This document shows, one piece after another, positions 26,806-52,203 of a stretch of DNA of 64,000 nucleotides. The stretch's first letter is position 1, and every line of letters begins with the position of its first letter. The notes beneath the pieces are model-generated. The model was not told where the DNA came from, searched no databases, and saw nothing but the letters and a program-made list of their open reading frames with translations. The translations under genes and the position numbers were made by a program. Location of the stretch: assembly GCF_044324875.1 (NCBI RefSeq), contig NZ_CP172185.1. One strand, given 5' to 3'. This DNA is from Escherichia coli. GTDB taxonomy: Bacteria > Pseudomonadota > Gammaproteobacteria > Enterobacterales > Enterobacteriaceae.

Positions 26806-27297
26806 TCACGCTTTATTTTTGATTTGCTGCTCACGGTGAGCGGTCTTCGTACTACGCGCCGCCAGCCACAGGCCGCTGTTTTTCATTGCGTAACCAAATA
26901 CCAGTCCAAGCGCCAGCGAAGGTAACACCAGTTTCCAGTCACCCTGCCCGGCAAACGTCGCGCATGCGCCTATAAACGTCCCCGGAACAAATGAAAGCAA
27001 CAGCTGTTTCGCCTGAATACACATCAGAAACGCGACAATACCGGTTATGACATAACCGAGAATTTCCAGATGTGGTGCCAGTGCACTACCGTAAATAATG
27101 ACCATCGCCCACACCACGCCACTAAGCAGGGTTGCAGCGGAGATCGCCAGCCCTTTCAGCCCACCTTGCGGGCAGGCAAAGTAGGCCGTACAGCCCAGGA
27201 AGCCCGCCCAGCTTAGTAAGCCCAGGGAAACAGCCACCCATCCCCAGATACCGGAGAGAATGCCTGTTGTGATTGCAATAGAGAGAAGTATGTTCAT
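26806..27297 (-). CDS. ycdZ: DUF1097 inner membrane protein YcdZ
   Basis: ORF 26806-27345; internal start MNILLSIAITTGILSGIWGW..., multi-TM. Confidence 0.85.
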   Translation of the reverse strand: MNILLSIAITTGILSGIWGWVAVSLGLLSWAGFLGCTAYFACPQGGLKGLAISAATLLSGVVWAMVIIYGSALAPHLEILGYVITGIVAFLMCIQAKQLLLSFVPGTFIGACATFAGQGDWKLVLPSLALGLVFGYAMKNSGLWLAARSTKTAHREQQIKNKA

Positions 27298-27398
27298 GCC
27301 GCGCATGATAGCAGAAAACGCGGCCATGAATGAGATCGAGCACACATTTTATGCAACAACAAATTATCTGTTGCAGTTATGAGTGATGCAGATCACAT

Positions 27399-27953
27399 TT
27401 ACTCTTCAGAATCTTCTTCCAGCTCGTCCCACATTGCACTAATAGCATCGCGGGTTAGCGGTGCCATGGTGCGCCAGAAAGGCGTAGTTGCATGGGCCTC
27501 CACTTTGCCAAGGAACGCACCACACCAGGGTAACAGATACTCACTGAACAGTGTTTCCAGTGCTTCGCTCTCATCTTCCGTTGACTGATCTTCCAGCCAG
27601 GAAGCCGCGAGCAGCAATGTGCCGATGTGATCGGCTGGCGTATCCGCTAATGGCATCCCCCGTTCGGAAAGAAAAGCGCGCACTTCCGCTTCCGTCGCGC
27701 CCTCAACCCATGCGCTACGATATGGCGGCACAGCACATTCATCGCCGATAAACAACGCATTGTAATCGGCAGAGACTTGCGCCATATCACAGCTTTTCTG
27801 TAAACGCGTCAGTAACTCATCCTGCTCCAGTGGCCAGTTCGCAGCCAGTTTCCCCTCACGAATCAGGGTAAACAGCGGCACCAGTAAAGGATCTTGCGGT
27901 TGGCGGTAATAGAGCGAACCCAGCACACGACAGAGGATAGAAAACTCGTTCAT
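27399..27953 (-). CDS. ycdY: TorD-family chaperone YcdY
   Basis: 184-aa ORF MNEFSILCRVLGSLYYRQPQDPLLVPLF... Confidence 0.9.
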   Translation of the reverse strand: MNEFSILCRVLGSLYYRQPQDPLLVPLFTLIREGKLAANWPLEQDELLTRLQKSCDMAQVSADYNALFIGDECAVPPYRSAWVEGATEAEVRAFLSERGMPLADTPADHIGTLLLAASWLEDQSTEDESEALETLFSEYLLPWCGAFLGKVEAHATTPFWRTMAPLTRDAISAMWDELEEDSEE

Positions 27954-27976
27954 TAATATATTTCCATTACTAGTAA

Positions 27977-28714
27977 TTAAAGGTCTGCAAATTCCGCAAT
28001 CGGTGCCATACCGCGAGATTCAAGGAAGTTCAGTAAGCGGCGCGGAGAAACATTCAAAATGCGCTCTGGCGGAAAATCTACCGCGTCGAGGATTTTAAGA
28101 CACTCTTCAAATTCACCCATGGTAAACGCGGTGTGAGAATCCGAACCTAATGCCACCCAACCTCCAGCGTCACGTACCGCTGCGGCTACCGCACGACAGT
28201 TGTCTTCACTGCCCTTACGTGAGTGTAAAAATGAGGAATTATTGATTTCCAGCGCCACCTGATGTTTCGCAGCTGCTTCAGCAACGGCTTTAACATCTAT
28301 TTCATATTTCGGATTTCCGGGATGGCTTATTATATGCACATTGCCGCTGGCGATAGTGGCGATCATCGCTTGCGTATTAGTCGCTTTGTCATGCGGCGCA
28401 AACACCGGCTCATGAAAACCGGCAATAATCAGATCCAGCGAATCAAACATTTTGCCACTGCAGTCAATTTCACCGTCAACATTTTTAATGTTAGCTTCGA
28501 TGCCGCGCAGGATCCCAACCCCATCAACCACTCGCGGCCAGATACGCATGTTAATGAAGTGCCAGTGATGCGGCGCATCTTCCATATCCGGGCCATGATC
28601 GGTGATCGCAAAAAGTTTAATGCCCTTTTGTTTGGCCTGGGCAATGTAATCACTCAATGTGCTATATGCATGCGTGCTGGCAACGGTATGCATATGAAGG
28701 TCGACGGGATACAT
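27977..28714 (-). CDS. ycdX: PHP-domain zinc phosphatase YcdX
   Basis: 245-aa [29 protein letters not shown] motif. Confidence 0.9.
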
Positions 28715-50219: not shown

Positions 50220-50234
50220 AGGAACCCAACCACC

Positions 50235-50912
50235 ATGTCAGAAATTGCCCTGAGTCTTAATGATGTTCATGTTGTTTATACCAGAAGCAGACAGGTCGTG
50301 TTACAGGGTTTTTCAATGTCCGTTCATAAAGGTGAACTTGTATGTCTGCTTGGCGTTTCAGGTTGTGGAAAAACAACCGTATTACGAACTGTAGCAGGCC
50401 TGGAACGATTACAACAAGGTGAAATATTCATATCACAACGCTGTGTAGCCGGAGCCGGAATTCATCTCCCCCCGGAAAAGCGCAGGGTCGGAATGGTCTT
50501 TCAGGAATATGCTCTGTTTCCCCACCTGACAGTAACACAAAATGTAGCCTTTGGTCTGCGCCATCTGCCTTATGAACTACAGCATGCCAGAGTCACTGAA
50601 CTTCTGAAAATGGTTGAATTATTATCCTGTGCAAAGCGCTATCCTCATGAACTCTCAGGTGGACAGCAACAACGTATTGCACTTGCCAGAGCACTGGCCC
50701 CGGCCCCTGATATTTTGTTACTGGATGAGCCATTTTCCAGTCTGGATAAACAAACCAGTGAATACCTAGTGAAAGAAGTACGGGACCTGTTACGTAGTTC
50801 AGGTCAGACAGCCCTGATCGTTACTCATAATGAATCAGAAGCACTCGAAATATCAAACCGTATTTGTATCATGACGGAGGGTAATATAAGTTCGGTTCAG
50901 TCTGTGGTCTGA
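50235..50912 (+). CDS. afuC: ABC transporter ATP-binding protein (AfuC/FbpC-like), possibly lacking a C-terminal regulatory domain
   Basis: 225-aa ORF with Walker A GVSGCGKTT, signature LSGGQQQR, Walker B ILLLDEPFSSLD; ends right after the NBD. Confidence 0.75.
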   Translation: MSEIALSLNDVHVVYTRSRQVVLQGFSMSVHKGELVCLLGVSGCGKTTVLRTVAGLERLQQGEIFISQRCVAGAGIHLPPEKRRVGMVFQEYALFPHLTVTQNVAFGLRHLPYELQHARVTELLKMVELLSCAKRYPHELSGGQQQRIALARALAPAPDILLLDEPFSSLDKQTSEYLVKEVRDLLRSSGQTALIVTHNESEALEISNRICIMTEGNISSVQSVV

Positions 50913-51720
50913 GACGTAACCGCACATTCAGGATCCCCTGTTCGTCATGGAAGCTGTATTATGTAACTATATGGAGGCATAGCAGATATTGTTGAAGAAA
51001 TACATCAAAAACACTCACATTTCTGGTACAACAGGAGTTGTAGATTTAATGATTATTGGGACGAAGTTACTACAGAAAAGCTGTACCGGGAACAGGTATG
51101 GTAGTTCCTTGTCACGTGTGGATTAAATGAGCATAATGCAGATCAATTACAAAAGGCATTTCGTAATAGCTCTGTTGTTGATTCGGTTACCATGATGGCT
51201 GTGGCAAGAGCCACCATGTGACTATACATGATATAATTATTTGTGTGATGTTGTTATACCTGAACAACAGGCATGAGATAATGGAAAAAATTATACATAT
51301 AACTCGGCTTTCCCATACTCCACTACAGAACAGTATATGATTCTGAACATTTCAATCCAGGCGCATTACATAACTATATTACATGTAACTATCTGGCCCT
51401 CAAATCATCGAGAGAATTGTTTAAAGTCAGCAGTCATAATCTGAATATAGATCATTATCACATAATTTAATTCTTAATTCACTACATTTTCCCTTGAATC
51501 CGGTATAATAAGACAGAGCACATGGCTGATGCTTTGTTTCGGTGTGGATAATCTGGTGGCGTCGGCTATGTGCTCTCAACAGTTAACTTATTATGAATAC
51601 TATTATCAATACAGGTTTTACATAAAAAAATAAAAAGCATCTCCTGATATCAGCCCAGTCTCTTTGGGCTAACCAGAATTATACATAAGCTATGCAGATA
51701 TTAATTTGCATACAAAACCA

Positions 51721-52203
51721 TTATTTTCTTGAGCACACTATACTAATGTATCCCAGAAGAGGTCCTGTGCATAATCCTGTTGCTGCCCATAATACAGCAA
51801 GTGAAATATCAGGACCATCTGTATCCGGATAAAATCCTCCATAATAAACAGCAAATACAGTAGAGTATGCATTGAATGCAGGTAAACTACTGTTCATGCA
51901 CGGTATCTGAAGGAGTAAAAGAAGAACATACACTGTTATTATTACTGATATAATGATTGCCAACATGGCAGAAATGTGCAGGGATATCATGTAATTTATA
52001 GCAGCAATACATAACACAGACGTTGCTATACCGGGAAGTAATGAAGCATAAATTTTCTTTAATATGTCAGGCGTCGCTCCCAGAGCATAGTACCATGCCC
52101 AGCCAATAAATATAGCCCACACAGGAATATTAATCCCCGGCCATGAAGCCAGGCATGACATCCCTGCTAACAGGGCTATGGTAAGATTCATCGGTAATTT
52201 CAT
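51721..52203 (-). CDS. hypothetical polytopic membrane protein (DUF1097/YcdZ-like by composition)
   Basis: 160-aa hydrophobic ORF last in the carboxylase gene string; resemblance to YcdZ is by eye only. Confidence 0.45.
   Translation of the reverse strand: MKLPMNLTIALLAGMSCLASWPGINIPVWAIFIGWAWYYALGATPDILKKIYASLLPGIATSVLCIAAINYMISLHISAMLAIIISVIITVYVLLLLLQIPCMNSSLPAFNAYSTVFAVYYGGFYPDTDGPDISLAVLWAATGLCTGPLLGYISIVCSRK

Follow-up and report, generated by a model that had tools for sequence, protein, structure and literature searches.

We analysed a 64,000-nucleotide stretch of Escherichia coli DNA (contig NZ_CP172185.1 of assembly GCF_044324875.1; hereafter, the window) that carries two genes for small membrane proteins of the DUF1097 family (PF06496): ycdZ, in the core genome (26806-27297, minus strand), and the last gene of a carboxylase-type operon on a genomic island (51721-52203, minus strand). 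The new result is the synteny of the latter. The gene of the DUF1097 subfamily to which the island protein belongs stands last in an uncharacterized operon, a position that is conserved although the gene itself is optional; the operon encodes components of a biotin-dependent enzyme together with a PxpA-like protein of the LamB/YcsF family, and this arrangement recurs across phyla, including in many anaerobes of the gut. The island protein itself is a remote paralogue of YcdZ, with homology that extends over the full length of the two proteins at approximately 17-22% identity. The best-supported role for it would be transport, as the permease for the substrate of the operon; on the strength of analogy, we give this assignment about even chances.

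The operon of the window is read from the minus strand in the order LamB/YcsF, biotin carboxyl carrier protein (BCCP), biotin carboxylase (BC), CT_C_D, CT_A_B, and DUF1097. A LysR-family regulator is encoded divergently upstream (57963-58898, plus strand), as it is in two related loci, L002 and L003, and on alphaproteobacterial plasmids. The product of the first gene (57059-57820, named pxpA in RefSeq) passes the NCBIfam model of the PxpA subfamily (NF003814, 278.9 bits; cutoff, 226), and BC (54088-55449) passes NF009471 (703.7 bits; cutoff, 686). Of the two carboxyltransferase subunits, the KipI/PxpB-like CT_C_D (53194-54078) scores higher with TIGR02712 (101 bits) than with TIGR00370 (73 bits), and the KipA/PxpC-like CT_A_B (52218-53204) is recognized both by RefSeq and by TIGR00724 (266 bits; cutoff, 230). 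The BCCP gene is split in this strain into a 5' fragment (56861-57041) and a 3' fragment (55460-55532). The DUF1097 gene is the last of the string, as the sequence-only reading had it: it begins 14 nt past the CT_A_B stop codon, with an AGGTG Shine-Dalgarno-like motif ahead of its start.

Three homologues of the island type were looked up individually, and all three are located in operons of this module: in Enterobacteriaceae bacterium B14, where the operon lies between clpA and infA; in a read-archive contig (Logan SRR1815416), where it adjoins an integrase; and in a Bacillota metagenome-assembled genome, where the genes come in a different order. A species-level scan with the subfamily motif (one genome per species, 100,044 species) yielded 28 loci, which were annotated by tblastn and with hidden Markov models (HMMs) built from the matches. 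In 17 of these, PxpA and BCCP, along with CT_C_D and CT_A_B where the contig reaches, are encoded directly upstream on the same strand, and DUF1097 always comes last, after a gap of -4 to about 130 nt; biotin carboxylase is present in only part of these loci. There are at least five gene orders, namely, PxpA-BCCP-BC-CTCD-CTAB-DUF, CTCD-CTAB-PxpA-BCCP-DUF, BC-CTCD-CTAB-BCCP-PxpA-DUF, CTCD-CTAB-BCCP-BC-PxpA-DUF, and BCCP-CTCD-CTAB-PxpA-DUF. The module loci come from Enterobacteriaceae, several families of Clostridia, acetogens (Acetobacterium, C. ljungdahlii, C. ragsdalei), and Negativicutes (Propionispira), and clustering of the neighbouring open reading frames (ORFs) singled out only these six families as conserved across the loci around DUF1097. 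That the genes have stayed linked although their order was rearranged speaks for a functional coupling. The co-occurrence of DUF1097 with clusters of KipI/KipA-type, BCCP, and LamB/YcsF genes, anticipated from the window alone, is strong and spans phyla. This genomic link is specific to the island-type subfamily; it does not extend to the DUF1097 family as a whole, with YcdZ and most of the other groups located elsewhere.

Some of the module loci have additional features. In Diplocloster (L017:4795-6798), the BC of the module is fused at the C terminus to a cytidylate-kinase-like domain (PF13189), and a gene of the biotin/lipoate ligase family is located just upstream of the fusion (L017:3801-4661). 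The BC ORF of Acetobacterium (L018:4487-6547) is of similar length to this fusion.

The coupling is one-sided. The five-gene module with the divergent regulator (LysR<>PxpA-BCCP-BC-CT_C_D-CT_A_B) is common, at 56-62% identity, on plasmids of Rhizobiaceae, Shinella, Acidiphilium, and Sulfitobacter, and the plasmid loci that were inspected (L046, L047, and L048, that is, NZ_CP124965.1, NZ_CP041720.1, and NZ_CP018077.1) contain neither DUF1097 nor a dedicated membrane gene at the 3' end; on the Acidiphilium plasmid, the module is followed by bioB. No island-type DUF1097 was retrieved by tblastn from the 72,556 plasmids of PLSDB. Homologues of CT_C_D (48% identity) and CT_A_B were also noticed on a haloarchaeal plasmid (L049). 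Conversely, four Clostridia genomes encode an island-type DUF1097, with 36-42% identity to the island protein, in a UPF0261-DUF1097-PEP_hydrolase operon that is preceded by a PEP_hydrolase::AraC fusion regulator (L016:988-3146, L020:7365-11349, L022:6221-10139, and L028:7349-11387), with no BCCP or BC within 10 kb. UPF0261 is an ATP-dependent small-molecule kinase domain (MarK; PMC12624787). The island-type DUF1097 therefore behaves as a portable, optional accessory that can be combined with one or another cytoplasmic enzyme system, not as an enzyme subunit. This behaviour, typical of dedicated transporters, argues against the role of an obligatory enzyme subunit as well as against a biotin-specific role.

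These observations bear on two rival explanations. Under the first, DUF1097 would be a structural membrane anchor or an obligatory subunit that tethers the carboxylase complex. The tight translational coupling, with gaps between -4 nt and a few tens of nt, and the invariably last, co-oriented position of the gene are compatible with such a role, and KipI/KipA homologues dock onto other biotin enzyme complexes (bioRxiv 10.1101/2025.10.28.685139). We nevertheless consider the anchor very unlikely: the enzyme module is widespread without DUF1097, the island-type protein also serves an unrelated enzyme pair, and hardly any of its surface is extramembrane. Under the second, the protein would supply a cofactor or a co-substrate, through biotin uptake similar to that by the BioY S-component or through conduction of bicarbonate. 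Here, one can point to the BCCP gene, found in the module loci wherever the contig reaches (16 of 17), to the biotin ligase-family gene in the Diplocloster cluster, to bioB next to the module in Acidiphilium, and to the six-helix architecture of DUF1097 in a protein that, as general background has it, is about the size of an energy-coupling factor S-component. However, the UPF0261/PEP_hydrolase operons with their island-type DUF1097 have no biotin component nearby, other DUF1097 groups adjoin non-biotin enzymes, YcdZ is predicted to be regulated by CytR, and Pfam detects no similarity to BioY in DUF1097 proteins, so that the chances of this explanation are slim as well.

The UPF0261-PEP_hydrolase pair is a Tm-1-like two-gene system. 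Acetovanillone carboxylase (AcvCDE/HpeCBA with AcvF/HpeD) was considered as a KipI/KipA plus LamB/YcsF system, which would have joined the carboxylase and the UPF0261 (MarK kinase) contexts; the idea was dropped, the carboxyltransferase of this enzyme being PycB/XccC-like and its phosphatase NagD-like.

The homology between the two membrane proteins of the window is established at the profile level. Both ORFs lie where the sequence-only reading had placed them and encode, as claimed, polytopic proteins of about 160 amino acids (aa), both of them very hydrophobic: YcdZ consists of 163 aa, starting from MNILLS (GRAVY 0.93), and the island protein (WP_096990743.1), which is modelled with six helices, of 160 aa (GRAVY 1.10). 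Compared with the gathering cutoff of PF06496 (24.6 bits), YcdZ scores 132.5 bits (E 1.7e-38) and the island protein 68.5 bits, both with near full-length matches; in the island protein, residues 7-155 cover profile positions 2-138 of 142. The suspected assignment of the island copy to DUF1097 is correct, and it is not new, RefSeq already listing the ORF as a 'DUF1097 domain-containing protein'. A six-frame search with the family HMM detected exactly two DUF1097 ORFs in the window and no third copy, and NCBIfam holds no model matching either protein. The relatedness of the two proteins to each other, raised as a possibility in the same reading, does not show in pairwise BLASTP (best E 0.18, not significant), and profiles were accordingly needed to demonstrate the homology: the comparison of the island-subfamily profile with the YcdZ-group profile by hhalign gave a 99.5% probability (E 1.3e-22, 150 columns, 17% identity). 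All 103 family members that we aligned match PF06496.

DUF1097 is a family of few members: when 1.84 billion cluster representatives were searched exhaustively with a profile, 203 reached E <= 1e-3 and no more than 8 reached E <= 1e-30, and a word-indexed search of 5.8 billion proteins found 15 clusters of the island type. In the alignment of 103 diverse members, W29, F32, W35, G42, G58, and G147 are at least 90% conserved; the helix-2 signature W..F..W with its glycines is common across the family, including the island ORF. The hallmarks of the island subfamily are IPVWA(L/I)FIGWAWY(F/Y)ALGATP in helix 2 and FNAYS in helix 5. Two long proteins, P0093 (487 aa) and P0094 (396 aa), contain an N-terminal DUF1097 domain, which in P0093 is followed by part of a prephenate dehydratase and by an ACT domain; the other fusion candidates have no second domain. 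P0093 might stem from a eukaryotic gene model or from an artefactual fusion, and the fusions give no clear functional clue.

The AlphaFold (AF2) model of the island protein, built with the 103-sequence alignment, is a six-helix bundle (pLDDT 97.2, pTM 0.90) with helices at residues 5-20, 28-40, 47-74, 79-97, 106-122, and 133-159. Lysines and arginines are confined to the N terminus, the loop between helices 2 and 3 (K49, K50), and the C terminus, and acidic residues are found in the loop between helices 5 and 6, a pattern that fits the predicted N-in/C-in topology. From the model and the charge analysis, the loops are at most 10 residues long, which leaves nearly no extramembrane surface. Going by what is generally known of small transporters, a protein of 160 aa would most likely have to oligomerize to form a pathway. 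A profile search against PDB sequences produced only chance transmembrane (TM) matches, and Foldseek found no significant structural match for the model in the PDB. There is no indication of membership in the NRAMP/APC superfamily, PF06496 being the sole Pfam match for the island protein and the 103 members.

Judging by its domain composition, the partner is a biotin enzyme of the urea-carboxylase type, divided over several polypeptides and combined with a LamB/YcsF hydrolase. The island BC and BCCP pass AccC-like and AccB-like NCBIfam models, respectively. The two carboxyltransferase subunits fall below the equivalog models of the 5-oxoprolinase components, with 73.1 bits for CT_C_D against PxpB (TIGR00370; cutoff, 145.55) and 223.5 bits for CT_A_B against PxpC (NF045499; cutoff, 500). 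The urea carboxylase model (TIGR02712; cutoff, 1303.85) is not reached either, the split proteins giving partial scores of 101, 241, and 507 bits, and there is no allophanate hydrolase in the island cluster. Among the plasmid matches, those that rank after the orthologues are uca genes, at 24-27% identity. We found no paper that assigns a function to this enzyme module. Three genes of Pseudomonas aeruginosa, PA0492, PA0495, and PA0496, presumably have the same domain content as the module. The PA0492-PA0496 cluster, including the BCCP-like PA0493 and the BC-like PA0494, has been described as being of unknown function (PMC6249292).

A clue to the product might come from a class-III aminotransferase that is encoded beside the module in the E. 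coli island as well as, at three different positions, in four Bacillota genomes (window 59040-63296; L017:10501-13003; L018:1844-4407; L019:5507-6865; L027:4654-6012). In the window, the presumably linked neighbours of the operon are a MocR/GabR-like regulator (59040-60533, minus strand; MocR-like PdxR in RefSeq) and the GABA-type aminotransferase itself (60652-61917, plus strand; 4-aminobutyrate--2-oxoglutarate transaminase in RefSeq). The E. coli island and Diplocloster aminotransferases are 44% identical, a value given for the four Bacillota enzymes, too. In Diplocloster and Acetobacterium (L017 and L018), an iron-containing alcohol dehydrogenase gene follows that of the aminotransferase, and the regulators near the aminotransferase-linked modules are of the MocR or PucR type. 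In P. putida, a PxpABC paralogue hydrolyses butyrolactam (bioRxiv 10.1101/2021.12.09.472016).

What the data show is that the two proteins are homologous, that the synteny is conserved, and that the gene is optional; substrate uptake we infer from the position of the gene and from the analogy with PxpT/YcsG, and the direction of transport, the class of substrate, and the enzyme chemistry are put forward on similar grounds. PxpT/YcsG is required for the use of 5-oxoproline in pxpTABC operons (PMC13274462). The island DUF1097 would then be a small inner-membrane permease or channel of six helices, probably oligomeric, that delivers the small substrate of the operon to the cytoplasmic enzyme. There, by analogy with urea carboxylase and PxpABC, the KipI/KipA-type biotin enzyme would use carboxybiotin to activate the nitrogen of a cyclic, lactam-like amide, and PxpA would then open the ring. 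The product could be an omega-amino acid such as GABA, which is suggested by the recurrence of the class-III aminotransferase as a neighbour. This lactam-opening chemistry is speculative; it draws support from the aminotransferase beside the module, from the alcohol dehydrogenase genes and the PucR-type or MocR-type regulators, and from the butyrolactam-hydrolysing PxpABC paralogue of P. putida. As a further hint on the substrate, the island CT_C_D scores nearer to urea carboxylase than to PxpB.

If DUF1097 moves a solute across the membrane, it could also act outward and, as an exporter or a channel, let the pathway product or some toxic intermediate (an organic anion or an omega-amino acid) out of the cell. 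This alternative would draw on the six-TM ALMT/FUSC/ArAE proteins. However, the Foldseek similarity to these is not significant and each weak Pfam match appears in only 1 of the 103 members. Moreover, catabolic operons with a downstream aminotransferase and alcohol dehydrogenase consume the product, and canonical pxp operons carry importers, all of which makes an exporter unlikely.

Several facts weigh against substrate uptake itself. The papers found to mention DUF1097 contain no experimental demonstration of transport for any member of the family, and the enzyme module is itself uncharacterized. The 17 module loci are phylogenetically non-independent, hence no p-value is attached to the linkage. 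The aminotransferase adjoins the module in only 5 of 18 module loci, and L002 and L003, which are most closely related to the E. coli cluster, lack it. Furthermore, most copies of the enzyme module have neither DUF1097 nor a dedicated membrane gene, so that the substrate may be endogenous and DUF1097 could serve another purpose.

The genomic context described here had been billed as the first functional hint for DUF1097; earlier hints exist. In 2012, YcdZ was predicted to belong to the CytR regulon, with a conserved CRP-CytR-CRP cassette, and proposed to be a nucleoside transporter, NupT (PMC3454398). The cassette upstream of ycdZ in the window (27331-27397, minus strand; TGTGATCTGCATCAC ... 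TGCAAC-N12-GTTGCA ... TGTGTGCTCGATCTCA) agrees, on direct reading of the sequence, with the published predicted CytR operator. In A. hadrus, a DUF1097 homologue is encoded upstream of preTA-hydA, the genes of reductive pyrimidine catabolism (PMC11036815). Among more distant members, DUF1097 genes were found immediately upstream of queC-queD-queE-queF (L041:7001-9989), the genes of 7-deazaguanine synthesis, which hints at a link to nucleobase-like compounds; between genes for an arylformamidase-like cyclase and a DHDPS-like protein; after those for a cytosine-deaminase-like amidohydrolase and GGT; after an alpha/beta hydrolase gene, 5 kb from a hydantoinase/oxoprolinase gene; and after acetoin/lipoate genes. 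Two further sampled contexts contained nothing informative, and for P0040 and P0156 the contigs are too short or uninformative. Cyclic amides or N-heterocycles are the substrates of several of these partners, an anecdotal pattern drawn from sampled contexts.

A broader proposal, tentative and in our estimate rather doubtful, is that DUF1097 proteins are small permeases of a hitherto unrecognized family, oligomeric and perhaps distantly related to the six-TM fold of ALMT/FUSC, whose solutes would be cyclic amides and N-heterocycles without charge. These would include lactams, dihydropyrimidines, and nucleobase-like compounds. Under this proposal, the operon would encode a novel kind of enzyme, a biotin-dependent lactamase, with urea-carboxylase-like N-carboxylation by the KipI/KipA-type subunits followed by ring opening by PxpA, and the neighbouring class-III aminotransferase would process the omega-amino acid that results. 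The present analysis overturns nothing; to the existing hints that DUF1097 handles small nitrogen heterocycles, it contributes a further context, and a stronger one than those before.

That the carboxylase cluster is island-borne, as had been recognized from the sequence, is well supported. A tRNA-Ser(GGA) gene (29941-30028, plus strand; ARAGORN), the probable attachment site of the island, is followed by a drop in GC content and by mobile-element genes; the cluster has a GC content of 41-47%, and the core one of about 50%. Of 5426 complete E. coli genomes, no more than 11 (0.2%) contain the cluster, in each case on the chromosome and with at least 99.8% identity. According to blastn, the window is 100% identical to the genomes free of the insertion sequence (IS) save for a 1328-bp insertion (55533-56860, plus strand) that splits the BCCP gene. 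The insertion is IS2-like, with IS3-family matches, and contains orfA and orfB (transposase ORFs at 55577-55987 and 55945-56850); 8 bp of the IS-free locus L001 (13626-13633) align on both of its flanks. IS2-like elements are 1331 bp long and generate a 5-bp target duplication, dimensions that the insertion and its flanks fit. In L001, the BCCP gene is intact (13561-13806) and encodes an 81-aa protein that passes NF005457 (121 bits; cutoff, 87). The insertion is absent from all 11 complete E. coli genomes that carry the cluster. In the window, it is located upstream of BC, CT_C_D, CT_A_B, and DUF1097, so the operon in this strain is probably inactive or polar; the DUF1097 ORF itself is intact. 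A promoter scan of the operon yielded counts no better than in shuffled sequences, and no convincing terminator was found past the DUF1097 gene.

The disrupted BCCP gene, the confinement of the cluster to 0.2% of the complete genomes, and its location among IS66 elements and pseudogenes might suggest that the adjacency is functionless in E. coli, that is, that DUF1097 is a hitch-hiking gene in a decaying remnant. This is the least probable of the alternatives considered, because the ORF has remained whole, with at least 99.8% identity in the 11 IS-free genomes, and because distant taxa keep the linkage under at least five different gene orders.

Elsewhere in the island, the interior (44001-46072) contains the IS66 accessory genes tnpA and tnpB and a YeeP-like GTPase gene; in a related genome (L001), these genes adjoin an Ag43 pseudogene. 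Just upstream of the carboxylase operon, on the opposite strand, an ABC transporter is encoded (47498-50912), consisting of a solute-binding protein, a fused two-domain permease of 562 aa, and an ATPase. Tentatively, it looks like a transporter of the iron(III) type.

The function of DUF1097/YcdZ, a conserved protein of the E. coli inner membrane, is uncharacterized. So is that of the enzyme module, although the module is found widely: it occurs on rhizobial plasmids, in acetogens and gut Clostridia, and, as it seems, in P. aeruginosa (PA0492-96). Through the cross-phylum linkage, it could become possible to learn what the membrane family and the enzyme module each do. The island copy as such belongs to a known family; what is newly documented is its operon context, which is conserved and open to testing, and the interest is modest.

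A comparison with known systems clarifies what is distinctive about the island operon. With respect to PxpT/YcsG, the NRAMP-family importer of 5-oxoproline (pxpTABC, or ycsFGI-kipIA), the island protein shares the membrane-protein slot in an operon of the PxpA/PxpB/PxpC type, and the likeness is one of functional analogy only: PxpT/YcsG has an unrelated fold of the APC superfamily, with 436 aa and 11 TM helices compared with 160 aa and six helices, and there is no sequence similarity. YcdZ of E. coli K-12, the proposed NupT, shares with the island protein the Pfam family, the length, and W29, F32, W35, G42, G58, and G147; however, ycdZ is located downstream of ycdY behind its own CRP-CytR-CRP cassette and outside any enzyme operon, whereas the island copy is the distal gene of one. 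PxpABC, reportedly described by Niehaus et al. in 2017 as an ATP-dependent 5-oxoprolinase, consists of the LamB/YcsF, CT_C_D, and CT_A_B proteins that are also encoded in the island operon; the canonical system lacks BCCP and BC, which the island operon adds, and the island carboxyltransferase subunits remain below the PxpB and PxpC cutoffs. Urea carboxylase contains BC, the CT subdomains A-D, and BCCP, all of which are found in the island module as well, but combines them in a single chain, whereas the island distributes them over four polypeptides and adds LamB/YcsF. Finally, the modules of the rhizobial plasmids share with the island the five genes and the divergent LysR regulator and differ in that, at the plasmid loci inspected, they come without DUF1097.

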